From NCBI GenBank assembly GCA_965285935.1, contig OZ260661.1, positions 118,792,001-118,856,000 of the forward strand: 64,000 nt of DNA. Direction: 5' to 3'. The stretch's first letter is position 1. Every line of letters starts with the position of its first letter. Below the pieces are notes generated by a model. That model was not told the origin of the DNA and made no database searches. It saw only the letters and a list, made by a program, of their open reading frames with translations. Positions 1-31,325 of this stretch are shown here, piece by piece. This DNA comes from Ophelia neglecta (taxonomy: Eukaryota). Both the position numbers and the translations under genes were made by a program.

Positions 1-1456
1 CGAAATTATCCTGACTTAAAGCTGTGATATGTCGGTCCTTATATAGAGTATTCATATTATTAACTTAACCTCTAGGAAAATTCACATAATCCATTTATTT
101 GACTTTGGATGATTCACCAGTGTGATAAAATCTGACCTGGTTGCTATGCTAGTTCAACAACTTGCTATTCACAGGCCAATAAATTATTGATTACTCTTAT
201 TATATCCATTTGTTTTTGTATTTACACTTGAATGCAGTCCCTGGGGCTGCATATACTAAAGAAAACACAGTTATTGTCTCTGGAACATTCCTATTATGGA
301 GCTTGACTAGTACAAAAAGATCCAACCAGATTAATTACATACTGTTTGTATCTACAGTGTATTTCCATTACACCAAAACTATCAATTCACAAGTGCTTTT
401 CCACAGCAAAGATCACCATGGACGTTTGGTAATTTGTTTACATAGTGGGGCTTATAATAAGATCTTTATTATTCTAATAATAATTCAGTAAATGACTGCT
501 AACTCCATTCAGAGTTCTTAACAAACATTCAGTTGACCTCTGTAGGATTAATGGTAATGAAAATACATGTATAGGAAACTCGTAAATTCAGTCTGATAGG
601 TCAAAGGTTAATTCCTAAACAAACAGTGACTAATCTCCTGACAAGTCTTATCACTAACCGTCCAAATTAAACATGTACTGGTGCAAGATGAAAAAAGGAA
701 AATGAAGTAAAAATGTTGTTTGAAGCTATAAGGTGGGAATTATGTCTACACGAGATCAAAGATAATCAAAATAGCTTTTTCTACTCCCAGCACATCTTTA
801 ATGTAAAGCTAATAATTGTTTGCATTCTGAACTGTTTCAAGTCCAACCACCTTAACAATAGCTACATGCTGGATGTGCCAGAAAGAAATACTTCAAATGT
901 AGGTACAGATACTGTATATTCAGAACACCTGCATATTAACAAAAGAGATCTGTAAATTAGCAAAATTTTTTGCACTTAAGTTTGCTGATGAAGTTTTTCA
1001 GACTTGACTCCTCTTCGTTTTTTATTCAACCAACGCCTGGCCTTTCTGCATGATGTCAGATGCAAATAAGGGTTTCCAGTTTTAGATGTGTACTTGTCAG
1101 GTTGTCACGTTGTTCACTGGAGTTCCTTCATAATATTTGATTATCTGTTAAGACAGAAGCAGTAAATGTTATAATGTGGTTCAATCGTGGTACTGGATCC
1201 ATCCGAAAGATATATATGCTGAGTTGATGTGACCAGATTATCTCTTAGAAGATGCTCATACATGTAGACTACATGTATATATGTACTCATTTTTTACATG
1301 GAGGAATTAAGTTTACACGGAACCCATCAATATTGGAATCTTTATCTTAAGGGATAAAATTGTGTCTAAATTGAAAATATTAAGACTTCAAATCTTCCTG
1401 AGGGTATACAAGTCCTAAGTGGATTTTTTGTCACATTGGTTTCCTCACTGAAGATC

Positions 1457-1912
1457 ATGACTCTCTATGAGCCGTGGGGTTATTACCCAGTGAGACCAAC
1501 ACCAAGTCACATTCGTCGGTCCGAGATGACCCGTGCAGGATGTTTCCTCTACCCTCGTTCTCTGGCGAGAAAAACAAATGCTCCATGGCGCACCTATTCT
1601 GCTCCCTTGGGCACTCAGTCTGCTCCATGGGGCACTCATTCAGCTCCATGGTGCACCCGATCTGCCAGGGCTGGTGGCGGTGGCCTCCCTCAGCCCCAGA
1701 ACATGGTGTCTGTCACCACAGTAAACCTGGAAGATTTGGTCATGAGATTAAACAAACCCACAGTCTCTAGCCAGGCCAAAACCTACCTACCAAGACTAAA
1801 TGATATTCAGGAGAATGGAACCTACCGCTGGAACAATATAAACTCATTCCGTGACACCCAGAAGTGCATATTTACTGAACATGGTGGAAACAAAACAATC
1901 AGTCAAAGATAA
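1457..1912 (+). CDS. Uncharacterised 151-aa protein with 4 tandem heptapeptide (S/N)AP(W/L)xTx repeats; single coding exon
   Basis: GC-richer island in AT-rich DNA. The ATG at 1457 follows a pyrimidine-rich acceptor (ttcctcactgaag|atcATG). The frame is open to TAA at 1910-1912 and the 21-bp repeats keep the frame. AATAAA at 2214-2219. Contains LEDLVMRLNKPTVSSQAK. Confidence 0.6.
   Translation: MTLYEPWGYYPVRPTPSHIRRSEMTRAGCFLYPRSLARKTNAPWRTYSAPLGTQSAPWGTHSAPWCTRSARAGGGGLPQPQNMVSVTTVNLEDLVMRLNKPTVSSQAKTYLPRLNDIQENGTYRWNNINSFRDTQKCIFTEHGGNKTISQR
1577..1660 (+). repeat. 21-bp coding tandem repeat x4 (NAPWRTY/SAPLGTQ/SAPWGTH/SAPWCTR)
   Basis: tctgctccatggggcactcat-like units read directly. Confidence 0.85.
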
Positions 1913-4259: not shown

Positions 4260-5643
4260 TTACTAACACCCAAATATCAAATCCTCACAAATAATTTATG
4301 CAGCCATATCCAAAAGCCTTTTTTTATTAATTGTCAAATGACCTGTACTATATAATTATATGTTAATCACAACAGAAATAAAATGGTGATTCAAATTGTG
4401 TGCAAACCATGAGGGAAGAAGAATAATAAATTTGTATACACATCTGTTGAAGTTGAGATGGAAAATAATCAAGGTAACCAAAACATGTTAACAATTAAAA
4501 TATTAAATAATTCATAGTTTTATTTTAAATGAAGGGTTTCCATGAATTCAGAATAAATAAACATACCTACAACCTTCCCTCCTCCTGCATGGAGAATGTC
4601 TTGAATCAATAATGTCAAAATAAACCTGACTCGAAGGGTTCATCAATGGTACCAGCATCAAAATATTTAGATCAAGCATCCAGTTGATTAATTTAATACC
4701 CACTGCATAGTTATGGTACACTGGTTAATCAGGAAGTTTTAATAAAAACAAAGAAAACACCCCAATAAGAACCAGTCCATATACATATTCATAATATTTA
4801 CCTACTTCCATATTATGTGTTGCAGTTAAAAAATGAAATTTTCCCCGGCATGAAAATTTCATTCAATAGGCAACATTCAATTTTTGCCATTATTGAAAAA
4901 CCACCATGAGATTGTACTACAATTTGTAACAAACAAAATGCCAGAAAAAAATCGTCTTTCACAAGTTTGTGATAGGCAGTTACACCTCCTGTGTAAACGG
5001 GAACATGGTAAAAATATGTTGCACACTCAGAAATTAGTTCTGAGTCACAGCCTGTTGAGAGACAGGTAAATCATAGGAGCTCTTTGCTTGCTGAGGGGGG
5101 TAAAACAAAGATACTGATGAGGTATTAGTACATTATCTAGCTGTCATACAATTATACCCTACAAACCTCTTATTTTTACACCCCTCAAACAATAATGGCC
5201 GACTATGGATTTGGATAGAATTTTGGGGTTTAACATCGCATAAGCACCATGAGGGCCATTTAGTGTCCTCTGACTATGGATAAAGGCCTCAAGTCAAAGA
5301 AAGCTCATTCACATTTCTAGGGTTATTTACCAAACACACTAGCATTAAGAAATAGACACCTGCAAGTGTAAATGGCAAATTAAGTACAACAGTTTTTTGG
5401 GGGTAAGTACTGGAAAGCATCTGAAATAAAAAGAACACATCTTTTTAACCAATAATTTAACTTCCCTCTGAATTCTTTTTTATTTTACCTTGAAAAAATG
5501 TATAATTTGGCAAAATCATGGCAACCACAGTGCATGGTTTCCTGTGTATTGGAAAACATTGTTGAAAATGAAGGGCTTTCAGGGCATTTTCTGTTTTCTA
5601 TGCTCAATATACTACTGACATCCTCACTTTTGGCCAAATTAAG

Positions 5644-5731
5644 TATGGTGGAACCTGCCTTAAAGACCACCTCTCTATGCAGATCACCTGTCAATTCTGA
5701 CCACTAATATAAAGGCCATAGTTTACACTGT
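5644..5731. mobile_element. Degenerate Tc1/mariner-type MITE (CAGTGAAACC family), related to 34109-34410 and 63854-63975
   Basis: tatggtggaacctgccttaaagaccacctct matches the reverse complement of the 63945-63975 end. Confidence 0.45.
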
Positions 5732-6177
5732 CAACCCGCCAATGTCAACAAAAGTCGATAATATGCTTTCACTGCCAATGTTGATCTTCCTCCAAAATAT
5801 ACATGTATATGTTACCTTGCCACTTTTGATCATACTAAATACCGTCACAAGTTTCTTTCTACAGGAACTGCCAGAAAATTCCACAGGTAGCTAAAAACAT
5901 AACCTTTGCAATGTTCAAAGTTTAAATCCTATAGGCCAATTAGTAATAATTTGTCATAACCTAAATTCAGCAGTATTCATGCAAATGGAGATAAATTGAC
6001 ATATATTGGCATGTGGACCAGGTAACCTTAGCTTTGTTTCTAATATGCATCTTTTCCTATTTGTTGAACTTTTTATAGAATGTTAACATTTAATAATATC
6101 TTTCATGGAATGATAACCCTTGTAGGGTTTCTAAATTATACCAGTATCACAATTTCCTAGAATGTTGTTTCTGAAGG

Positions 6178-6629
6178 TCATAACTCTACACGTTTTTCTT
6201 GCCCTGGTATATCTTGTGGCAGCATGTCTGGCTGTGGTATTTCTTGCTTTGGTATTTGTTGTTCTGTTTTTTCTTGCTGCAGTGTTTCTGGTTGTGGTAT
6301 GTCTTGACCTGTTTTTTCTTGCTTCAGTATTTCTGGCTGCGGTATCTCTTGCTGTGAAGTTGTATCTGAAGTTTGATCACTGTTTGTGGCTGATACAGAT
6401 TGTTTTTCATTGCTGTCACCCTCCCCTTCCACTTGTACAGGAGCAGAAGGCAAGACTGGTTCTAGGATGTCTCTACTCAGGACTACTTTTTCATTACCAT
6501 TATCATCTTTTACTTCATCCAGTGGCTCCCTCTTTTGGTCTTCTTCACTCAAACTACTTTCTTTCTCTGGTGTGGTCTTTTTCTTCTTTTGCTTCTTTTT
6601 CTTTTTCTTCTTCTTGGAGCTATCTTTGG
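6178..6629 (-). CDS. CRELD: CRELD alternative last exon B (poly-Lys, acidic/Gln-Pro repeats, C-terminal RVEL)
   Basis: Acceptor ccttattccag| at 6630, phase 1 gives AKDSSKKKK..., in frame with ORF 6178-6552; TGA stop. Confidence 0.85.
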
Positions 6630-9600
6630 CTGGAATAAGGACATTTGAACATTTAATAAATAATAGTTTTAAACTTGGTTTGCATGGTGTAATAAAAACA
6701 AGATACTAGAACTATTTTCTGCAATTTATTTAAGGTACGATGGATGACAATGATGAAAAGATGGATAGTGAACTAATGAGAAATGACAAGTATAATAAAT
6801 TATCCTGAGGCTGGATTATTCATTCTAAACAAACCAGGTTTTTTTATCAGTATAAAAGTTACATGAAGGTTGAGAACCTCACAGAAACATGCAGCTTTTT
6901 GCAACAACTTAAATATATTTAATGTAGAAATGACTTACTAGTACTTTTTAAGGTATGAACCGACATGGACGTTACATTCAACAGAATCACATTAACGCTA
7001 GTATATTTTGAATTTGTTTGTTATAAATCTCACTGGGATTTTAAATACATATACAAAGTTTCAAAAATTACAAAGACATTTAGAATCAACAAGAGATTCC
7101 ATATTCAAATCGAAGCACACAAACTATAACTAATTTCCAAAAAAAAGAATCTTACATTTTAATTCAATTTCAGATGTATTTAATACGTTACAACCTTTGA
7201 AGAACCAATCACAACAGTGATATATAATACATTCTACAATTTTCTTTCAAATCGATTTGTAAACCAAAAGAGATAGAACCAATAAGTGATGGTGAAGACT
7301 AGCTGAGACACAACACTGTTTTGCAAAATTATTCCTACAATTGCAAAACCAACATAAGAAGCCAAAAGCTTCCAATTATCAAGGGAATTTATCTTTTGCT
7401 TCTTTTTTTTCTTTCCTTTGTTCTTCTGTTTACTGCTTGATGATTTGCCTGATGACTTTTTGTCTGAGTTTGAAGAAGAACTATTTTTACTGGAGCTATT
7501 TTTTTTCTGCGATTTACTTTTCTTTGAAGCAGGCACATCTACAAAGAGACGAGAGGAGACACCATGTTAGAGTGGACGAATAAAGGATTGTGGAAAGTCT
7601 TACACTCAGAAACTTACTTTATTTCTTATTTTTAAGTGCTGATCACTATAAACACACCTGTCAAATGGCTATTGGGAATATGGGAAAAAGGGAGGTAAAT
7701 CAAGCCATACAAGTTCACACCTAAATTTACTATTAAAGGAAGCAAAACAAGAGGCAAAGCAGTCAGGTCCAAACGATGTTTTACAACAGGAATACTATAT
7801 ACAGGAACTTAATTAATCAATTTCCTGGACGTTAGGGCTAAGTAGCCTAGGTTTGTACTAAAACAAATTTCAAACTTGTTTGTACTAAGCGATTAATTTG
7901 ATACCTAAGTTTTGTATTGACTCTAAATCAATGAACTTATGGTAAACACACATCAAGTCACCAGGTTAACATCAAGCAGTAAAGGAGTGCTGGGGATTTT
8001 TATTCCGAACAAAATGATAACAAGGTAAATCAACAATAGGCTTCCATCTAAACAAAATTGAATACATGCAATTACAGTATTGCAAGTGGTTCAATTTGAT
8101 TCTTAACCCCCCCCCCCCCCTCCCTAACCCCTAAAGTAGCAGTGGCATTACCTTACCAACTGACACTCTCATTCATCCGCCTCCCCCCACCCCCAATTAA
8201 AAAATGGAGTAGCCCTTTGTAGTTAATATTCTACTATACTGACCACAAGCAAGTGATATAACCCCTGGGCATTAGCTTGAAGCTAGTATCTGCATGCTGA
8301 ATGTCAATTATTTTAACATAACCAGCATAGAACAAGCCAGGTAGTATTTGTTTTTGTAATGATTAAATATTAAGCATAATTACATAATCCCAGCCAAAGT
8401 AAAATGTTCATACTTCTTTTGTATGTATTAAGTTAGCAAATGATAATACTAACTGACAATGAATGTGGAATCAGGTAAAGAAATAAGCATGGTTCCGTAA
8501 GCCCGGGCCTATCGTTTAAGCATCAGACCTTTTAGAATTCTACCCTCCAGGGCCTGCTGATTTTGAAGGTTACTGGCCCTGTCAGTCAGTATAAATTTTG
8601 TTCTTATTTCTAGCCCTGGTCTGCTTTTTTGCTTACCAGTATACACATGTTTGGGTTATTACTTTTAAAAAATGGGAGACATACTTTGCTCACCCACCCC
8701 CCCCCCCCCCTCCCCTCCTATTATTATATACACTTAGACAAGCCCACCTTTTGCTTTCACATCACATTTATCTTAAAACTCACCTTTTGCTTTAGCTTCA
8801 CATTTATCGTAAAACTCACCTTTTGCTTTAGCTTCACATTAACCTTAAAAACCCATCTTTTGGTTTAGCTTCACATTTATCCTAAACTCACATTTTGGTT
8901 TAGCTTCATATTTATCTTAACACTCACCTTTTGGTTTAGCTTCACATTTATCCTAAACTCACATTTTGGTTTAGCTTCATATTTATCTTAACACTCACCT
9001 TTTGGTTTAGCTTCACATTTATCCTAAACTCACATTTTGGTTTAGCTTCATATTTATCTTAACACTCACCTTTTGGTTTAGCTTCACATTTATCCTCTTT
9101 CTTGATGAAGCCCTCCTGACATTCACATCGGTAGGATGAAGGTAAGTTGACACAATTCTCGTTTTCACCTGGACAACTGCTTTCCTCTGTACATTCATCT
9201 ATATCTACAAGGAGGAGGCACAGGTTAATGTTCTTGTCACATGATATAAACATCAGTTTGCCTAGATGGCCTTTTATTCCTCATCAATGCTACTCATTCA
9301 GGACTACAATTTACTTATTCCCTCATCATATTTTCTCACATCATATTTTCACTAAAAGAACTATACTGATAATTTCTTGCTACAAAATCAAGCGGAGTGC
9401 ACAAACTAACCTTTACATTCCCCTTGGTCGTCTTTCTTGTAACCCTCTTTGCACTCCGTACAGAGTTGATTACCAGGGCCGGTGCAGCCACTACAGGCAC
9501 TGTGACAAGCTGTGGGTAAATATATATACTATACTCATCAAACACATACAACACCAGGCTCTATTGATTGTATACACTGAACTTTATACAGGGTCCTACC

Positions 9601-12600
9601 AAAAAATTTTAACTACAAAAGAGACGCGAGCACAAAAGACACAGGTAAATGAGAGAAAAAGAAAATAAAGGAAAGATGAGAGCATACTTACTGGAGCACT
9701 TAGACGAGCCTTCTGTGTTAATACAATACTGGTCCTCAGCACAGTTACCTTCACCAGACTCACATTCATTTTTATCTAAAAAAAAACACAACATTACAAA
9801 TATATGACGCAATTCTCCTAGCTTCAATGCAGAGGATGTATTTCAATGGTTGAAAAAACTATTATAATTATGAGAGCCAAGTTGGAACTAACCTATGCAT
9901 CCTTCGGGAGTGTGTTCCCAGCCACTCCGACAGGCATCACATGACGTGGGAGAGGAGTCAGTACAAGACATTTCGCATGATACATGACATGCTGAAATAG
10001 AAAATACACAATAACATTTAGACAGGAGGCTGGTAATACTTTATCTTCATAACACGCTGAAATGGAAAATATATGATAACATGAAGAGAGGAACCTGGTA
10101 ATAGTTAATCAAGTTTATCAGATATTCTGCACAGCATGTCCGAGCATAACATCACACTTTTCATAAATTAACTATGGTAGTATAAAACTGCAAGTTCTCA
10201 ATCAAATCAGAAACTAGCATGAGCCGAAATAATAATCTTATCTATATTTTCTAGTACCAAAACACATGATGCATAATCAATTCAGACCAGGACAATGGAT
10301 TGGGATTTAAAGGTAATGCTCTATGTTATTAGAGACTAAGATTAATTGAGCATGTAGACTATGTATGACTATACAACATTTAGTATTCACCTTTGCAGGT
10401 TTCGTTTTCTTTATAATATCTTGGATTACATTCATCACATTTATCTGATCCTGGTCCAGTGCACTCATCACAGGCATCATCACACTCTAAAAATGAATGA
10501 AAATGGATTAAAAATGAGTCAGTCCAGTAGCTGTAAATGTGTGTAAAGGACCCTAAATTACAATGAGAGTTGTGTCATCTAAACATACAGTTAAGAGCTA
10601 GTTATACTAAGTTTAAGTTAGTTTACATGTTAAGTTTACAAGTGAAGCTCAGTACTTCCTTGAACATGAGAAGAAGCCCTTAGTGATTTATAAGTTAAGT
10701 TTACAAGTTAAATTTTAAGTTTACAAGTTACGTTTACAAGATAAGTTTACAGGTTAAGTTCAGTACTTACTTGGACATAAGAAGGAGCCCTCAGTGTTCA
10801 TACAGTACTTATCATTCTCACATGGTGGCTCTTCCTTAACCTCACATTCATTAATATCTGCAAGAAAGAGTGTGATAAATCAATAATTATTTCTATTTTC
10901 ATCTGTGACAAATCAATAATTATTTCTATATTCATCTATCTATATTCTATAGTTCCAAGGCTAGTGTCGGCCATAAGAGTGACAATATCTTAGCAATAGA
11001 GAGGTGTAAGCCTAGGGGTAAGAGAGGTGTAATCCTAGAGGTAAGAGTGGTGTTAGCCTAAAGGATAAGACTGGTCATTTCTAGAGTAGCTCACCTTCAC
11101 AGCCCTTGTCTTCCACATAATTCCAGCCTTCTTTACAATCATCACATCCCTCAGGGCCCTCTCCCCAGCAGCTGGACTCACAAGCACTGTCACAAACTGC
11201 AACAACATAACAAACATTAATTTATGAACTCTTGTGATCATTCCTTGGAACAATTATTATATTTATTCGTTATCACACATCTAAATGAGGAAAAAACTTC
11301 AACATACTTTTACAGGAAATATGAGTATCATTTTTGCTCTCCTCAAAGTAGCCATTTGTACACTCATCGCAGACAATACCCTTGTAACCGTCGTCACATT
11401 TGCAGTTACCGTTGCCTTCTCGTGTACCATCACCCTGCAGAGCAATACCAGGATTTATGACAAGGTGTTAAGGGGTATTCATAAAACTGATCAAATAAAA
11501 TTGAGTAAATTCAAACTCCCTTTTACACAGCTTTGACTAAAAATATGTTTATCAAATTTGAAATATTTGTGTGCAAACCTCTCAAAATAATATACCATCT
11601 CACAAATGCACACCATGTAGGGTCTCCGCTTTTTCAAATTAAATTTTAGTAGTACATCATATTATGGAAAAACTGACACTCTGATAAACTCATTATTTTA
11701 TTTCTACATTAGAAGCTATGGACAAAAAGAATGTCACGGTCTTGTTTTAAATATTCTACCTGCATACACAAGTGCACTTACTAAACATTTGCCATTTCCT
11801 TTACAGGGTCTGTCTTTTCCACCTCTGCATTCATTGCAATTTTCCCCAAAATAACCTTGTGCGCAGCACACTGAAATTGATAATCTAATTTGTAAACAAG
11901 AAGTACCCAATACTGCTTTCTTTTACATACCCAATTACCTATTCAGATGATAATAAATGATAAAAGAAATTAAGTGATAAATTCATAATTTGACAAGGTG
12001 GCATAGGACTAATTAATCTAGAATTTAGGTTCAGAGTAAATCTCCTGCGTACCACTATTCTGGATATTCTGTTTTGAGTATATAATAAAGCAAATCAATA
12101 ACCTACATAAAACCAGTCCATGAAGATAAGTTAAACATACCTTGCAGTTTTTTGATACAGAGATATTCCTCCAGGTTTACATTTTTATGCTTGGCAAATT
12201 GTTTAAACCACCAATTCTCTATTGTTTCTTCTTGATGTTCAAGCATCATGTGACACTAGAATTCAAGGGTGATTCAAAATTGCTAATAGCCAGTTTACAA
12301 TATCAATATCATAATACAGTTATCGAAAAACACTTGCCAATTTAATGACGTGAATATAGCATACCTCTTTTCCTTCATCATGACAAATACCTTCAAGTAT
12401 CTCAATGAGCCTGGTTTCACTGTAAGGTAAAATGAATGCATTTGGGCAAAATTTGCTGAATGCAGCAACCATAATGTAGACCTTACTGAACTATCCTCAT
12501 AATTAACAAGAAGTTATTTTGTTCATTGCCTTAGATAGGCATGGTCATTTCAACTGCCTACCTGTGAGCATATGCTCCTAAGCTTTTTTCTTCCCAGTCT

Positions 12601-13129
12601 GTATTGCCTCCACCAAAATTGGACTTAGCAGTATTTTTCAAGCCCTTAGATAAAAAACGAGAATATTAAAAAAATGGAACAATAAATTCTGTGCCAAAAT
12701 CTAAATTTTAACTCCAAAAAAGGTTTGAAATATATTCTCTCACAAACTATTAAATTTATTTCTCAGATTGGTTTATTAGCATGAAGAAAATCCTGATTTT
12801 GTTTATAATAATATCTCAAGGGGTTACAGTGCTAGGGATTGGAATTATAAGAATAATTTGAGAATGGAAGAAAAACACCTTTCACTGGACTTTGATTATG
12901 CAGTTGGACCAGTATCTAAGCACTGATAAGTCGAAAATGTTTTTGGGGCCATTAATTTCGTAAATATTCAGAATTGAAAGTATTTACTAACCTTGAGGAA
13001 GTTTGTTGCAATGCTTTTACATGTCTCACATTTTGACTTATCTCCAAGTGCTATGGTGAACACAATTAATAACAAGATGGCAATGCTGGCCTCTACCTTC
13101 TTAATGAGATTAACAGTGAATCTACTCAT
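6178..13129 (-). CDS. CRELD: CRELD (cysteine-rich with EGF-like domains), soluble ER-retained isoform, ~586 aa: 13 shared exons + last exon 6629-6178
   Basis: Signal peptide, N-terminal CETC (CxxC), WE-domain signature KSNFGGGNTDWEEKSLGAYAHSETRLIEILEGIC, then EGF, furin-like and Ca-binding EGF repeats. All introns are GT-AG with consistent phases. C-terminus RVEL*. Confidence 0.9.
7234..7538 (-). CDS. CRELD: CRELD alternative last exon A (two transmembrane segments)
   Basis: Acceptor tctctttgtag| at 7539, phase 1 gives DVPASKKSK...FTNRFERKL*; minus-strand AATAAA at 6725-6730 lies before the exon B acceptor. Confidence 0.85.
7234..13129 (-). CDS. CRELD: CRELD membrane-anchored isoform, ~537 aa: 13 shared exons + last exon 7538-7234
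   Basis: The same shared exons join in phase 1 to an exon with a Lys/Ser-rich linker and two hydrophobic segments (LLASYVGFAIVGIIL; VVSQLVFTITYWFYLFWF). Confidence 0.85.
8744..9095. repeat. ~35-bp tandem repeat (~10 copies; 71-bp higher-order dimer) overlapping the CRELD exon 13 donor
   Basis: Unit ctcaccttttggtttagcttcacatttatcctaaa alternates with ctcacattttggtttagcttcatatttatcttaaca; period 71 (8923, 8994, 9065). Confidence 0.9.
9070..9204 (-). CDS. CRELD: CRELD coding exon 13 (Ca-binding EGF)
   Basis: DIDECTEESSCPGENENCVNLPSSYRCECQEGFIKKEDKCEAKPK; ag|...|gtgag; phase 1-1. Confidence 0.92.
9411..9509 (-). CDS. CRELD: CRELD coding exon 12 (furin-like)
   Basis: CHSACSGCTGPGNQLCTECKEGYKKDDQGECK; phase 1-1. 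Confidence 0.9.
9692..9775 (-). CDS. CRELD: CRELD coding exon 11 (partial cbEGF)
   Basis: DKNECESGEGNCAEDQYCINTEGSSKCS; phase 1-1. Confidence 0.9.
9893..9991 (-). CDS. CRELD: CRELD coding exon 10 (furin-like)
   Basis: CHVSCEMSCTDSSPTSCDACRSGWEHTPEGCI; phase 1-1. Confidence 0.88.
   Translation of the reverse strand, partial: HVMYHAKCLVLTPLPRHVMPVGVAGNTLPKDA
10391..10486 (-). CDS. CRELD: CRELD coding exon 9 (furin-like)
   Basis: CDDACDECTGPGSDKCDECNPRYYKENETCK; phase 1-1. Confidence 0.9.
10771..10857 (-). CDS. CRELD: CRELD coding exon 8 (partial cbEGF)
   Basis: DINECEVKEEPPCENDKYCMNTEGSFLCP; phase 1-1. Confidence 0.9.
11095..11196 (-). CDS. CRELD: CRELD coding exon 7 (furin-like)
   Basis: CDSACESSCWGEGPEGCDDCKEGWNYVEDKGCE; phase 1-1. 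Confidence 0.9.
11308..11434 (-). CDS. CRELD: CRELD coding exon 6 (EGF)
   Basis: GDGTREGNGNCKCDDGYKGIVCDECTNGYFEESKNDTHISCK; phase 0-1. Confidence 0.92.
11782..11870 (-). CDS. CRELD: CRELD coding exon 5
   Basis: VCCAQGYFGENCNECRGGKDRPCKGNGKCL; phase 1-0. Confidence 0.92.
12141..12255 (-). CDS. CRELD: CRELD coding exon 4 (WE domain)
   Basis: CHMMLEHQEETIENWWFKQFAKHKNVNLEEYLCIKKLQ; phase 0-1. Confidence 0.92.
12365..12419 (-). CDS. CRELD: CRELD coding exon 3
   Basis: (S)ETRLIEILEGICHDEGKE; phase 2-0. Confidence 0.92.
12562..12644 (-). CDS. CRELD: CRELD coding exon 2
   Basis: GLKNTAKSNFGGGNTDWEEKSLGAYAHS; phase 0-2. Confidence 0.93.
12992..13129 (-). CDS. CRELD: CRELD coding exon 1 (signal peptide, CxxC)
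   Basis: MSRFTVNLIKKVEASIAILLLIVFTIALGDKSKCETCKSIATNFLK; acceptor ctttcag| at 13144 just upstream of the ATG. Confidence 0.88.
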
Positions 13130-17054: not shown

Positions 17055-17321
17055 TCAGTCATTCATTTTAACCAGTTCTAAGCCGTCCAAAGTGTCATAG
17101 ATTAAACGAGTGTTTCTGTTTATCTGCATTCCATACAGGGCGTCAGTAACAGCCAGGCCAAACTCAGGATCATCTTTTGATATAATCCCTCTCTCCACTA
17201 TAGCTATCATATTTATCATGGCATGGAAAAGAGTTGGTTTGTTTCTGGGTGTTGTGGAATTTTGCAGCGAGTTTGAACTGTATCCAGACCTTGTTGGTAG
17301 ATTGTGCATTGTTGTTACCCT
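17055..17321 (-). CDS. Predicted homeobox gene exon 2 (88 aa, compact C-terminal domain)
   Basis: RVTTMHN...KPTLFHAMINMIAIVERGIISKDDPEFGLAVTDALYGMQINRNTRLIYDTLDGLELVKMND*; good acceptor, phase matches exon 1. Confidence 0.65.
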   Translation of the reverse strand, partial: RVTTMHNLPTRSGYSSNSLQNSTTPRNKPTLFHAMINMIAIVERGIISKDDPEFGLAVTDALYGMQINRNTRLIYDTLDGLELVKMND

Positions 17322-20300
17322 CTGAAAGAAAGCAATTACAAGTTTTAAAGTAAGCAACTGACAAATTTAAAATTCTAATATGTCCAGTATATGTTCAAAA
17401 CAGGGCATCCAGTGAATACTTCTCAATATGGCATCGAATATACTAGTATAGTAGTGTGGTTGATCCAGACATGTTTAATTTAAGTAGTAATATTGTTTCT
17501 ATAGGCTGCAAGGGTGCAATAGATTTCCCATGGCCACCAATATAACATTTCATTTATAAAGTCATATTCAAAGCATAAATATTGTATTCAAATAGATCAT
17601 TTTAAAGGTAAATGACTGCAATTGATGGTGAAAAACTCGCAATATGATGACCAAATCCCTTGCCCCGCAAATTGCATTTCTACCACTTTTACTAGCCAAG
17701 ACAGTAGCGTATATATGAAAACACATTAAATAAATAATTCTCTGGAAATGCTACAATTGCCCAACATAATATCATCCAGTGATCAACAAGTGACCAGACT
17801 TTGGTTCAGGAGTAATGTAATACTGTAAAACCCTTTTATTTCGCGAGCCCTTTATTTCGCGAATTTCGCGAGTAGTATAAAAATCGCCAAATTAAAGGGC
17901 ACGTGAAAATTATGGGCTCGCGAATATTTAGTCCAGCAGTACGGAAGACGTGGAATCCTAGTAGAACAAATCGGTGTTGCAACGCATATCATAATGCGCA
18001 ACCTTCGGTGTTTTACCAAACGTCTCCGGCTTCCGTCAGCGTCCGGAAAACAAACAAACAAGATGTCAAGACAAACCACTTTAGGGACATACATAAATAT
18101 TGTCAAAAAACAATCCAACAGGAGGTCTAGGACATGCTGTGAAGATTGTTGGTAATTTTAAATAAACACTCAAAAGAATGATATGGTTACGTTCATTCCA
18201 TACTAAGGCCAGAAAGGTGGACTTTTTTTTAACATTTTTCAAAATATTCTAAAAGCGCGAAATTAAAGGGCAGCGAAATAATGTATTGCAAAACCGCGAA
18301 ATAAACGGGCAGCGAAATAAAAGGGTTTTACAGTATCTAATTTCATTATTGACTTAAAGTTAGTGTCATTGATGAAATAAAGTAGAATATTTGACTTAAG
18401 CTCATTTTAACCTTATTCAAAAGCGTCGGCGTTATAATTTACAGGATTACAATAATAAAGATGGTGAAAAACAGTGGGCCTTTTGTCTCCATTCATCTCA
18501 AATAAGTGGGCCTTTAAATGATCAGAGTGGGCCATTTCTTGTTTTACACACTACTTTATATATAGCAAAGAAACAATCAAAGACATGCCAAAAAAGTTTT
18601 ACTGTTTAAACAAACAACCTTCTCACAACTGATGGCGTGGCCGAGTGGTTAGGGCGTCCGCCTCGCAAGTGGGAGATCGGGGTTCTAGCTTCAATCACGT
18701 CAAACCTAAGACGTAAAAATAGGTACTGGTAGCTCCCCTGCCAGGCGCCCGGTATTTCGGAGGTAGTATCAGGACTGGTCAACCCGGTGTCAGTATAATG
18801 TGACTGGGTGGGGTTCCCTGTCTGGTGTCTACGGCAGGTACTCCAGTGAGGCAGCACTCTAAAGAGGGCATTGAGCCCACTGTCACAAGTAGGCACAGTG
18901 GCGATATGACCGATAAGTGTTGAAAGCCACGTAAAACCCCAAACAACAACAACAACACAACTGATGGCCTAGAAAACAGCCTCAAATAGAATAGAATTAA
19001 GTGTCACAACTGGGTGGCAAATGAATCTGCTAAACTTTCAATTGCAGCTATATCAAATGACAGTACCAGGACACTGATTATCACCATATAATTTTATGTC
19101 AAAAAGGGCACAACTATCAATAAATTGTACCAATGAGGAACACTACCAGGTGGTGGAAACTCTTAACTGGAAGATTGACCACACAATCCATTCGCCACAG
19201 TTTTCGGGATATTAAATGGTGTTTTGCCAGCAAGGGTACATGCAAGGGGCGATAATATGGGATGATCAATCGGTTATGTACCACTAATGATTGATTATGA
19301 AGTTCGCACTGATTGTAAACATTATACCCAACTGATAAATTTCACAAACAAGGGAATATGAGGTTTGATAGGTCTGGACAACTGTCAGACAATATTTACC
19401 TGGCTCTGCTGACTTATTTTGCTGTTAGACATCCATGGATTTTGACCCAATTCAGAGGTGTGTTTACTGCTCCCATTTGACACATTCTGGGACATCCCCG
19501 AATCGGATTCCCCCATCGCTTGACTTCCTGGGGGAAGGATGTTATTTTGGCAACAGCAACAACTGTTCATCATTGGATTGTCTTGGTGAAATTTTATAGG
19601 ACTCTTGATTGTTTTCTTCCTGTTCCTTTGCATGAAGGTTTTCATTTCCCATTTAAACCTAGGAATTGGCCTGGGTCGCACCCTTGCATTCATTGCAGAT
19701 TTCAAAACAGGCTTAGCCTCTGAAGTTACACAGTTAGAGGGAGAGATGCTGCCAATACCACGCCCGATTCTATCAGTTTTACTGCATGGTACATTCTTTG
19801 TCATTTTCCTCAGTATTCCTGACTTGCGTTTCATAATTTTCCTTTTCAGAAATGAAGGTGAAGGTCCAGAACTTTTGAGTATCAATCGTTTACATTGCTG
19901 GCCTACTTCAGTGGGCGATAATTTGTTAGCCTTCTGCAAAGTAAGTTCATTTGAAGTTTGGTAGGGACTTAAGTGAGTTGAAGAAGTACATGCAGATGGT
20001 TGGCCAGCTGGGTAGTCTTTCGTGACTTTGGTCGATTTAATCTCAGACTCACGGTTTTGAGCAGGACATATCTGATGTTTGATTGATGCAATATCAACTT
20101 CATGAACACATGATTCAAGGGCCTTTCTCTTCCTCTCCTGTGCATCAATAGAGTTACTTTCCTCATTACTATTAGCTTTTTCCTCTTCCCGCCTAGCTCT
20201 TGCTCTTCGATTTTGGAACCAAATACTCACAATCCTTTCACTCATCCTTAATTTCCTTGCTAAAATCCCTTTCTCGGTCTTGTTGGGCCATTGGTTGCCT

Positions 20301-20407
20301 TGAAAAGATCCCTCTAAAATGTTAAATTGAGCAGGAACTATCACTGTTCTTTTTCGCTTCTGTTTTAACTGTAGTTTTGTGTTATTAAGCTCCCTGTTAT
20401 CAGTCAT
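17055..20407 (-). CDS. Divergent Q50 (paired-like) homeobox protein, predicted two exons 20407-19400 and 17321-17055, 424 aa
   Basis: Homeodomain KRKRTVIVPAQFNILEGSFQGNQWPNKTEKGILARKLRMSERIVSIWFQNRRARARR. Strong donor CAG|gtaaat at 19400 (phase 0) and acceptor ctttcag| at 17322 (phase 0) join two open frames. Confidence 0.75.
17823..18333. mobile_element. Non-autonomous DNA transposon (TA target, Tc1/mariner-like MITE) in the homeobox intron
   Basis: Perfect 22-bp TIR ctgtaaaacccttttatttcgc / gcgaaataaaagggttttacag flanked by TA; subterminal cgcgaaa repeats. Confidence 0.88.
18634..18955 (+). mobile_element. tRNA-derived SINE (Meta/MESC-like core, (AAC)n tail)
   Basis: Box A TGGCCGAGTGG, degenerate box B ggttctagc, core ggtgtcagtataatgtgactgggtgggg, tail tgttgaaagccacgtaaaaccccaaac(aac)n; 13-bp TSD cacaactgatggc (18624-18636, 18956-18968). 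Confidence 0.88.
19400..20407 (-). CDS. Homeobox gene exon 1 (homeodomain in the first ~75 aa, then a low-complexity Ser/Lys/Pro region); unspliced ORF would end at 19385
   Basis: 340-aa ORF with WFQNRR helix 3 and L16, F20, P26, L34, W48, F49, N51, R53. Confidence 0.9.
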
Positions 20408-27549: not shown

Positions 27550-29702
27550 CCAGAGGAGTAGCTGACCAGAGGAGTAGAGGAGTAGCTGACCAGAGGAGTA
27601 GAGAGGAGTAGCTGACCAGAGGAGTAGAGGAGTAGCTGACCAGAGGAGTAGAGGATTAGCTGACTAGTGGAGTAGCTGGCCAGAGGAGTAGAGGAGTAGC
27701 TGACCAGTGGAGTAGCTGACCAGAGGAGTAGAGGAGTAGCTGGCCAGAGGAGTAGCTGAACAGAGGAGTAGCTGAACAGAGGAGTAGAGGAGTAGCTGAC
27801 CATACGAGTAACAGATCAGAGGAGTAGAGGAGTAGCTGACCAGAGGAGTAGCTGAACAGAGGAGTAGAGGAGTAACTGACCAGTGGAGAAGCTGACCAGA
27901 GGAGTAGAGGAGTAGCTGACCAGAGGAGTAGCTGAACAAAGGAGTAGCTGAACAGAGGAGTAGAGGAGTAGCTGACCATACGAGTAGCAGATCAGAGGAC
28001 TAGAGGAGTAGCTGACCAGAGGAGTAGAGGAGTAGCTGACCAGTGGAGTAGAGGAGTAGCTGACCAGAGGAGTAGAGGAGTAGCTGACTAGTGGAGTAGC
28101 TGGCTAGAGGAGTAGAGGAGTAGCTGACCAGTGGAGTAGCTGGCCAGAGGAGTAGAGGAGTAGCTGACCAGAGGAGTAGTTGACCAGATGACCTGAGGAG
28201 TAGTTGACCAGCTGACCAGAGGAGTAGCTGACCAGTGGAGTAGCTGACTAGAGGAGTAAAGGAGTAGCTGACCAGAGGAGTAGCTGACCAAAGGAGTAGA
28301 GGAATAACTGACCCTACGAGTAGCAGATCAGAGGAGTGGAGGAGTAGCTGACCAGTGGAGTAGCTGACCAGAAGAGTAGAGGAGTAGCTGACCATTGGAG
28401 TAGCTGGTCAGAGGAGTAGAGGAGTAGCTGACCATTGGATTAGCTGAACAGAGGAGTAGAGGAGTACATGACCCTACGAGTAGCAGCTCAGAGGAGTAGA
28501 GGAGTAGCTGACCAGTGGAGTAGCTGGCCAGAGGAGTAGAGGAGTAGCTGATGGAGTAGCTGGACAGAGGAGTAGCTGAACAGAGGAGTAAAGGAGTAGC
28601 TGACCAGACGAGTAGTTGACCGGAGGAGGAGCTGGACAGAGGAGTAGCTGACCAGAGAAGTAGAGGAGTAACTGACCCTACGAGTAGCAGATCAGAGGAG
28701 TAGAGGAGTAGCTGACCAGTGGAGTAGCTGACCAGAGGAGTAGCTGACCAGTGGAGTAGCTGACCAGAGGAGTAGAGGAGTAGCTGACCAGTGGAGTAAA
28801 TGGCCAGAAGAGTAGAGGAGTAGCTGACCAGTAGAGTAGGTGACCAGAGGAGTAGAGGAGTAGCTAACCAGATGAGTAGCAGATCAGAGGAGTAGCTGAC
28901 CAAAGGGTAGAGGAGTAGCTGACCAGTGGAGTAGCTGGCCAGAGGAGTAGAGGAGTAGCTGATGGAGTAGGTGACCAGAGGAATGGTGGAGTAGCTGACC
29001 AGTGGAGTAGGTGACCAGAGGAGTAGAGAAGTAGCTAACCAGATGAGTAGCAGATCAGAGGAGTAGAGGAGTAGCTGACCAGTGGAGTAGCTGGCCTGAG
29101 AGTAGCTAACTAGAGGAGTAGAAGAGGAGCTGACCAGACGAGTAGCTGACTAGAGGAGTAGTTGACCAGATTTCCTGAGGAGTAGTTGACCAGCTGACCA
29201 GAGGAGTAGCTGACCAGAGGAGTTGCTGACCAGAGAAGTAGCTGACTAGAGGAATAAATGAGTAGCTGACTAGAGGAGTAGCTGACCTGAGAGTAGCTAA
29301 CTAGAGGAGTAGAAGAGGAGCTGACCAGACGAGTAGCTGACCAGACGAGTAGCTGACCAGACTAGTAGCTGACCAGAGGAGTAGCTGACCAGAGGAGTAG
29401 AGGAATAGCTGACCAGAGGAGTAGAGGAGTAGCTGACCAGAGGAGTAGTTGACCAGCTGACCAGAGGAGTAGTTGACCAGTTGACCAGAGGAGTAGCTGA
29501 CCTGAGGAGCAGCTGGCCAGAGGAGTAGAGGAATAGCTGACCAGAGGAGTAGAGGAGTAGCTGACCAGTGGAGAAGCTGACCAGCGGAGTAGAGGAGTAG
29601 CTGACCAGAGGAGTAGTTGACCAGCTGACCAGAGGAGTAGTTGACCAGCTGACCAGAGGAGTAGCTGACCAGAGGAGCAGCTGGCCAGAGGAGTAGCTGA
29701 CT
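27550..29702. repeat. ~2.15-kb purine-rich minisatellite of 8-bp (gaggagta) and 16-bp (gaggagtagctgacca) modules
   Basis: Direct reading; generates the spurious VSYSSTPL/WSATPLL ORFs. Confidence 0.95.
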
Positions 29703-31325
29703 ATATCTAGCTCTAACAATCGTGTTATGATATCAATTTAAGCATCACAACCAAGACAATGATGTATAAGCCATGAAGGATGGGCCATGAATAATGTATG
29801 AGCCTACTCCTAGCAGACTACAAGACACATTATTGCTTATCTACATGAATATAGAATACCAGCGGAAAAAAACATGGTGATGACCAGGAGTTCAGCTGCC
29901 TTGGAACTGAATGCCAGGGTAACTTGGTCCCAGAATTCCTACCATAAGATACATGTACATGTATGCTACCAAAGAAACATGGTGATTATATAATCTTATA
30001 TGTGCAGTACATCATCCCAGGTGGGAACAGTTTGGTCAATGTATACAGCATGGATCATGTATTTCCAATATTGTGTATGTTGTATGCATTCTGCATTAAA
30101 TCAAAACATCTTTTTTGATTACCAGATTTATGAAAGAGGATAGGCTTTAACAACTATTTTGTAGGTATTTAATAGAATACTACATCTATACACATAAATT
30201 ATGGCGATCATTTATTTTTAACGTGTTTGAGTGTGCATTCTCATAAGAGCAACCGGTTTGCTTCTCAAGGGACAATAATGTTTTATGCATACATGTGGAG
30301 GAGCAGTTGTGGTATAGGTTTACAGCTTTCTGGTGAATCCGTTATATAAAGTCAGTATCCATAAAACACTGGGAACATATCCACCTTACCAGTTGTGTAA
30401 TCCTGTAATAATGATCGTGTGATTTTGTTGAGACCATTAATGTGTCATCATTTGGGAAGTGTTTATATTTACAAAGAAGGATTTAATTGTGTGTTAGGCC
30501 TTCTGCAATTATGCTTTGCATAGGGACATAGGCCTAATGGCCATAAGCAAATTTTAATTGTAGCTTTGAAGGTACATTATCCTCCATTATAATATGCTTC
30601 ATACTCAAAGTGACACCTTAGAACTGTAATGACAGGTCACAGCCCATTATCAAACTAAGTGCCTGGACCTTGTATTCAGTTAAACATTTATTTGTCTGGC
30701 TGGCAGCACACACCATTCACCTACAGGAGCTTGTTTGACCCGGGGACTGTGATCAGACAGTAAACAACACAGCCTGCTGATAGCCTGCTTATCATTATTA
30801 GCATTAATACTTACAAATTAATACAGGGATGTCCATCCTGCAGGTAATGTTATAACACATGATAAGCTGGCTATACCTGTGTATCTGCTGATAGTCAGCT
30901 GTTAAGAAATTATCATCTCTGTGGTTCATGTACATACATGCATCTAGATCTAAGCACTTAACATATCTGATGATAACCAGGATAACTTATTAACACATAT
31001 GTATATTATATACATGTACTGCAATGATGTATAATGTATCAGAATCTGATAGTGATGGTACCGGTACATTTCAACACATGGATGGACTAGGTTTCCCAGA
31101 CACCAAGGATTGGTAAGGAGAGCTCCTTACACTATAAACACACAAAATACTACGATATACAACTGCTGTCTGACAGGATCTACTGGTAGTGTTATACTGC
31201 TCAATGAGCTACACTCGTACTATTTTTGGTCTAACACCACCTTGTTTTACTTTCAGGGAGATCCTAGGATTGAAGATGTAGACCTACATATGCAGATACA
31301 ATAAGGAGCATCATCTGCATTCTAG

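Follow-up and report, generated by a model that had tools for sequence, protein, structure and literature searches.

The window, which is the full 64,000-nt stretch analysed here and in whose coordinates positions are given unless another locus is named, carries a CRELD gene on the minus strand, with its 3' end in the region singled out by the original prediction. CRELD proteins assist protein folding in the ER. Reading that strand, we modelled 13 shared exons from 13129 to 9070, with AG/GT borders throughout and a final phase of 1. Coding exon 1 (12992..13129, minus strand) supplies the start codon, a hydrophobic stretch at residues 16-29 that by eye resembles a signal peptide, and an N-terminal CxxC motif, CETC, at residues 34-37 (C34-C37). 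Exons 2-5 (12644-12562, 12419-12365, 12255-12141 and 11870-11782, minus strand) encode the WE/DUF3456 domain and the start of the first EGF repeat, and exons 6-12 (11434-11308, 11196-11095, 10857-10771, 10486-10391, 9991-9893, 9775-9692 and 9509-9411, minus strand) encode cysteine-rich EGF-type repeats. The final shared exon, exon 13 (9070..9204, minus strand), encodes a calcium-binding EGF and ends at 9070 with CEAKPK plus one nucleotide, followed by a phase-1 donor, GTGAGT. In Pfam searches, exon 4 scored 21.4 bits against PF11938 (WE/DUF3456), barely above the cut-off of 21.1, exon 6 matched EGF_laminin and exon 13 matched EGF_CA (E 9e-8); exons 1-6 aligned with a CRELD transcript at 50-67%. 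The features of the CRELD family, namely the WE/DUF3456 domain, the N-terminal CxxC motif and, downstream of the WE domain, EGF and calcium-binding EGF repeats, are all present in the predicted protein.

This appears to be the sole CRELD gene in the genome. Searches with exon 2, exon 4 and the whole protein of a relative found WE-domain matches at the window locus only, the other 6 of the 9 matches to the whole protein being weak and covering the EGF end alone. A Pfam search of the genome missed the short exons of this gene and found one different gene, CNPY2-like by eye. Since the searches give lower bounds, the single copy is well supported rather than proven. Upstream of the CRELD gene lies an apparently intronless 340-aa frame (19385-20407, minus strand) whose N-terminal part is a homeodomain (PF00046, E 2e-16). 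Possible exons of neighbouring genes are a short frame that starts with ATG downstream of an acceptor-like site (~17060-17310, minus strand) and a 180-aa frame with no Pfam match (1370-1912, plus strand), and a long low-complexity, tandem-like region with minus-strand open frames and strong strand skew occupies 28000-29737.

Two terminal exons behind one donor

By conceptual splicing, exon 13 joins without a stop to either of two last exons; the protein has 537 aa when the join is to exon A and 586 aa when it is to exon B. The original prediction that this phase-1 donor fits two stop-containing exons was borne out by the open joins: two intact, phase-matched, open terminal exons lie behind one donor, and no other gene was found that owns either of them. 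Reading through exon 13 into the intron was rejected as a further ending, with a stop after 3 codons. A tandem array of 36/71-bp units (8745-9096, minus strand) derives from the end of exon 13, donor included, and holds four extra AAAG/GTGAG sites (8999, 8928, 8820 and 8784), every one of them out of frame; these are possible decoy donors.

Exon A (7234..7538, minus strand) runs from an acceptor at 7538 to a TAG stop at 7236-7234 and encodes a Lys/Ser-rich linker followed by a predicted two-helix membrane hairpin (~7386-7324 and 7314-7240). Among the candidate acceptors between 9060 and 3000, that is, AG sites with phase-1 open frames of >=50 codons behind them, 7538 has the highest pyrimidine tract (0.88). 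The two transmembrane (TM) segments first proposed for 7538-7234 hold up as a prediction, on hydropathy, on an AlphaFold2 hairpin and on homology to mollusc tails (see below). On the Kyte-Doolittle scale, the two hydrophobic segments reach maxima of 1.78 and only 1.32, the second being weak on hydropathy, and AlphaFold2 modelling of the tail from a 5-row alignment gave helices at 9-29 and 33-57 joined by a 3-residue turn (mean pLDDT 69.6). Pfam found nothing near its cut-off in exon A. Some membrane-form tails also end in xxEL (P0047, P0101, P0117, P0265 and P0270), consistent with a C-terminus that lies in the lumen past the hairpin.

Exon B (6178..6629, minus strand; acceptor at 6629, TGA stop at 6180-6178) encodes a run of Lys residues, an acidic spacer whose DNA has 15-bp repeats (6195-6356), and a C-terminal RVEL. 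Its acceptor leads the longest frame (150 codons) among the same candidates and has a pyrimidine tract of 0.71. When 9069-3000 was simulated 300 times under a Markov-1 model, acceptor-led phase-1 frames of >=150 codons arose in none of the 300 simulations and frames of >=100 codons in 8; a [KRH]xEL end arose once in 300 and a long frame ending in xxEL never (0/300). The exon B frame is beyond chance. Exon B, its spacer included, had no Pfam match, and no second copy was found in the genome. Its derivation as a duplicate of exon A was discarded, the sole match being a 36-nt, A/G-rich, low-complexity stretch (81%), and a 167-aa frame on the plus strand over exon B was read as an antisense shadow of the purine-rich exon.

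DNA contigs of another sample (runs X1-X3, all from that single sample) continue through the introns, contain no exon joint and are uninformative on expression. Over exon B they carry at least 18 substitutions, and of those listed 5 are silent and 13 replacement, about neutral; from this pattern the spacer looks free to drift. Exon B has no stop in these contigs and no indel inside it among the rows listed, and four indel rows fall 22-29 nt before its acceptor. In the contigs of runs X1 and X2 the protein would end in HVEL, with R changed to H at position -4.

RVEL, described in the original prediction as KDEL-like, does not match the Prosite ER motif and was not itself found in the literature searched, including the searched text of the motif paper PMC2140024; it does fit the tolerances given in that paper. 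There, any residue except Pro is tolerated at position -3 of the retrieval signal, R and H both work at -4, HVEL counts as a strong ERD22 motif, KVEL is the end of the ER-resident ERp27 and ERD21 bound all KXEL variants (PMC2140024). ER retrieval of the soluble form is predicted on these grounds. If exon B were used but RVEL were weak, the soluble form would be largely secreted; the missing Prosite match and the silence of the searched motif text on RVEL would agree with this, as would the report that overexpressed CRELD2 may be secreted (PMC6245729). We consider that outcome unlikely, given the binding of every KXEL variant, the KVEL end of ERp27, the effectiveness of R and H at -4 and the HVEL end of the other allele.

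A probable retrocopy of exon A and candidate poly(A) sites

A copy of exon A, 95% identical over 310 nt with 14 substitutions and 2 one-base indels, lies on another contig (C7; L028:1501-1855) and was found also in runs X1-X3. It consists of exon A alone, from the first base to 5 nt past the stop, and is followed by a decayed 38-nt tail containing 30 A; a 7-bp target duplication, TGTATGT, is present on both flanks, and a LINE-type zf-RVT remnant, under the Pfam cut-off, lies ~600 nt upstream. In the window, just 6 of the 20 nt that follow 7229 are A, so no genomic A-run accounts for this tail; the copy looks like the product of a polyadenylated RNA that ended in exon A, retrocopied with loss of its 5' part. 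Its 5' end coincides with the first base of exon A inside a 4-nt microhomology, so that the retrocopy is uninformative on the junction between exons 13 and A. Runs X1 and X2 seemed to hold an exon A allele with a frameshift; this copy, with an identical insertion and 5' flank, accounts for it.

From the retrocopy we infer a proximal poly(A) site for exon A at ~7229, ~5 nt past the stop (7229..7246 with its signal, minus strand). An AAGAAA at 7246-7241, a variant poly(A) signal, lies 12 nt before the cleavage point near 7229, and a GU-rich stretch lies downstream. The AATAAA that the original prediction assigned to exon A is present (6725..6730, minus strand), ~100 nt before the exon B acceptor, and is a candidate distal signal for exon A transcripts, but the retrocopy points to cleavage ~500 nt earlier and the AATAAA at 6730 would therefore be a second site at best. 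Candidate signals for exon B are found at 5479..6094 (minus strand; ATTAAA 6094-6089 and AATAAA 5484-5479). The retrocopy-defined site is a modest addition to what is known of CRELD genes.

In the arrangement that we propose, splicing to the near acceptor at 7538 and cleavage just past the exon A stop would yield the membrane form, and skipping to the far acceptor at 6629 would yield the soluble form, so that the near acceptor with its cleavage site would compete with the far one. Both forms would share the signal peptide, the CxxC/WE domain and the EGF repeats. By analogy with CRLD-1A and CRLD-1B of Caenorhabditis elegans, the membrane form may help to assemble membrane clients, among them acetylcholine receptors, and the soluble one may work in the lumen as a disulfide isomerase or as a chaperone.

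Membrane and soluble isoforms in other animals

In C. elegans, according to PMC6245729, crld-1 uses exons 9a and 9b to make CRLD-1A, with two TM segments, and CRLD-1B, with KDEL; both forms localize to the ER, the protein is active as a disulfide isomerase, and the membrane form alone supports acetylcholine-receptor assembly. The same paper describes the worm switch and calls that of Drosophila 'likely'; Drosophila Creld is given two peptides, PA and PB, in PMC9307246, and fly and worm are said to make both forms from a single gene in PMC12448699. CRELD1 is a human disease gene and acetylcholine-receptor maturation factor and CRELD2 an ER-stress protein (PMC6245729, PMC12448699). The core idea of the original prediction, one gene with a membrane and a soluble output, is already in print for worm and fly (PMC6245729, PMC12448699).

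Like crld-1 and Creld, the window CRELD is one gene with a signal peptide (in the window a candidate seen by eye), a WE domain with CxxC, EGF repeats and two alternative last exons for a two-TM or a KDEL-type end, both ends being predicted in the window. Its shared part is longer than in the worm (~440 aa, where the whole worm isoforms have 356 and 310 aa), its soluble tail differs from those of worm and fly in its 150 aa and its non-Prosite RVEL, and its membrane tail is not alignable with the nematode and arthropod tails (1.5% and 1.7%). Vertebrate CRELD1 and CRELD2 have the same domain plan, with two TM segments in CRELD1 and a HEDL/REDL-type end in CRELD2, but they are two genes, whereas one was detected in the window genome.

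A survey of last exons in invertebrate CRELD loci had been suggested as a check, and we ran it on 30 protein clusters. A same-species pair of membrane and xxEL proteins with a common N-terminal part was present in 18 of the 30 (9/10, 7/10 and 2/10 in three sets), which is not a prevalence because the clusters were hand-picked with entries named 'isoform' favoured; most paired isoforms are computed gene models. All eight anthozoan clusters had a pair (Nematostella, Actinia, Exaiptasia, Montipora, Porites, Acropora, Pocillopora and the octocoral Dendronephthya), the Exaiptasia pair being two annotations with a common prefix of just 76 aa. Pairs were also present in seven mollusc clusters (Mytilus, Mya, Mercenaria/Ruditapes, Ylistrum, Pomacea, Dreissena and Potamilus), in the nemertean and bryozoan clusters (Lineus and Watersipora) and in that of the tardigrade Ramazzottius, and Logan proteins included both tail types for the Acropora and Mytilus clusters. 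No same-species pair was found in 12 of the 30 clusters, including four singletons and three one-type clusters. The Centruroides cluster had membrane or other tails only, as had the Crassostrea cluster among the 15 of its 79 members listed, and the Pecten and Ptychodera clusters had the soluble type only. Sea urchins had both types in different species, with REEL in Strongylocentrotus and a membrane tail in Lytechinus. Same-species pairs turned up in all the major animal groups that were sampled with named models, apart from the hemichordate, the arthropod and, counted within one species, the echinoderms. Isoform pairs splitting at the same junction in molluscs, the nemertean, the bryozoan and the tardigrade lend support to the claim that one CRELD gene gives both membrane and soluble proteins.

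The mollusc pairs (for example, Mytilus edulis XP_071159496.1/XP_071159505.1, Mercenaria XP_045166486.2/XP_045166487.2 and Pomacea XP_025106580.1/XP_025106581.1) resemble the window CRELD in branching after the last EGF into a Lys-rich linker with a homologous hairpin (95.7%) or an acidic xEEL/xDEL tail, and in bivalves the divergence comes directly after the last EGF (C.PKPK or.KPP), as in the window. They differ in a shared part of ~330-360 aa, the window having extra repeats, and in soluble tails of 14-27 aa. The sequences closest to the window CRELD, which come from different sources, were P0087 (52% overall, with an exon-A-like tail) and the P0181 cluster (with a soluble tail); in the latter, the soluble tail of a close relative goes from CEAKRK through a run of Lys and an acidic spacer to HDDL, the plan of exon B. 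Exon 4 alone, used as a homologue query, returned no candidate. The Babylonia model P0085 has two WE regions.

The anthozoan X1/X2 pairs (for example, Nematostella XP_032217760.1/XP_032217761.1 and Dendronephthya XP_028407865.1/XP_028407866.1) likewise have ~350-410 shared residues, after which comes either a linker rich in Lys with two hydrophobic segments behind it or an acidic tail, the latter ending in HDEL, RDEL, REEL, KEEL, HEEL or HAEL. In contrast to the window, their membrane tail is seemingly read through an internal donor and is not a separate exon, and its homology to that of the window (14.9%) is within the controls. At a coral locus (L005:11138-11358), no intron separates the membrane tail from the last EGF exon, the frame continuing past a possible phase-1 donor at 11139; in 8 of the 8 anthozoan clusters the membrane tail starts with Gly. 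The anthozoan switch is likely one of read-through versus splice, a logic unlike the two separate exons of the window. No xxEL exon was found in the remaining 1.7 kb of the coral locus, which may end too soon.

A further locus, L011, holds an exon A homologue in the same phase, with a tandem CRELD paralogue downstream; no phase-1 xxEL exon was found before the paralogue, the stretch 6140-9400 of L011 having been searched. Of the two tandem genes (L011:1061-11615), the first seemingly has the membrane exon only, and the locus is possibly an independent split after local duplication.

These comparisons also bear on whether exon B is used at all. Were exon A alone used, with exon B a low-complexity 3' UTR frame or a decaying remnant, the gene would encode a plain CRELD1-like membrane protein; the near-neutral substitutions in exon B would agree with this, as would the seemingly membrane-only homologue at L011 and the retrocopy, the only transcript trace found in the genome being that of exon A and none that of exon B. 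We nevertheless regard it as very improbable, since none of the 300 simulations produced a frame of 150 codons led by a phase-matched AG, the exon B of the other sample has no stop or listed indel and keeps [RH]VEL at its end, and relatives carry soluble tails of the same plan.

Probable age of the switch and the CRELD1/CRELD2 split

In a tree of the N-terminal region (49 rows, 219 columns; root not inferred, long branches present), a 99/97 branch separated CRELD1, CRELD2 and two tunicate-like rows from all named non-chordates. The window CRELD grouped, without strong support, with long-type sequences beside the molluscs, and the AU test rejected its union with CRELD2 (p 0.0008) and with CRELD1 (p 3e-7). 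On these trees, the window CRELD is orthologous to neither CRELD1 nor CRELD2 alone, and a later CRELD1/CRELD2 split, as originally suggested, fits. The same suggestion was that the switch may be ancestral in bilaterians; with pairs in 8 of 8 anthozoan clusters this is likely too narrow, and the membrane/soluble switch likely predates bilaterians.

Comparison of tail profiles with hhalign matched the exon A tail group to the mollusc tails at 95.7% (reversed controls 7.8 and 6.9), arthropods to nematodes at 93.9% and CRELD1 to the tunicate-like pair at 91.8%. Across cnidarians, lophotrochozoans, ecdysozoans and chordates, the best cross-group values for membrane tails were 14.9 and 18.1, with reversed controls reaching 19.1. 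Membrane tails of distant phyla are therefore not alignable above the controls, and we infer a single origin of the switch from shared position and plan, not from sequence similarity.

Both forms could also be made from the window CRELD without the switch being one ancient feature; cnidarians, spiralians, ecdysozoans and chordates would then each have acquired or exchanged their membrane or xxEL last exons independently. The lack of membrane-tail profile similarity across those groups is in keeping with such gains, as is the difference in splice logic between the intronless read-on of the coral locus and the separate exon of the window, and xxEL tails, being short, could arise easily. On the other hand, anthozoans and molluscs share the plan of a branch just past the last EGF, with a Lys-rich linker and hairpin on one side and an acidic tail and xxEL on the other, pairs are spread across the major groups sampled with named models (with the hemichordate, arthropod and within-species echinoderm exceptions given above), and short hydrophobic hairpins may diverge past detection. 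Repeated gain is in our view the less likely account. We lean towards a single splice/poly(A) choice that goes back to the cnidarian-bilaterian ancestor. It would have begun as an internal-donor read-through, as in corals, become separate last exons in lineages such as that of the window, and been hard-wired into CRELD1 and CRELD2 only once the gene had duplicated in chordates; local duplications, as at L011, may have led to parallel splits.

With high confidence, we conclude that the window CRELD likely makes, by a choice of last exon and poly(A) site, a predicted ER-membrane form and an RVEL-ended soluble form predicted to be retrieved to the ER, and that this switch likely dates back to the cnidarian-bilaterian ancestor or further, its two outputs having been parcelled out to CRELD1 and CRELD2 once the gene had duplicated in the chordate lineage. 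Papers on C. elegans and Drosophila already describe the two-ending arrangement, annotations of many molluscs contain it, and for the window alone the result is ordinary. The papers found describe the one-gene, two-isoform state for two ecdysozoans only; a search of titles and the beginnings of abstracts found no cnidarian, mollusc or subfunctionalization treatment of CRELD, and the main text of PMC4417111 does not contain 'CRELD'. The extension to Cnidaria is a modest addition, and isoform-specific tests become possible in Nematostella. With the pair present in a likely lophotrochozoan and in anthozoan gene models, CRELD1 and CRELD2 would offer a clean example, and a very old one, of duplicates that each took over one splice form.
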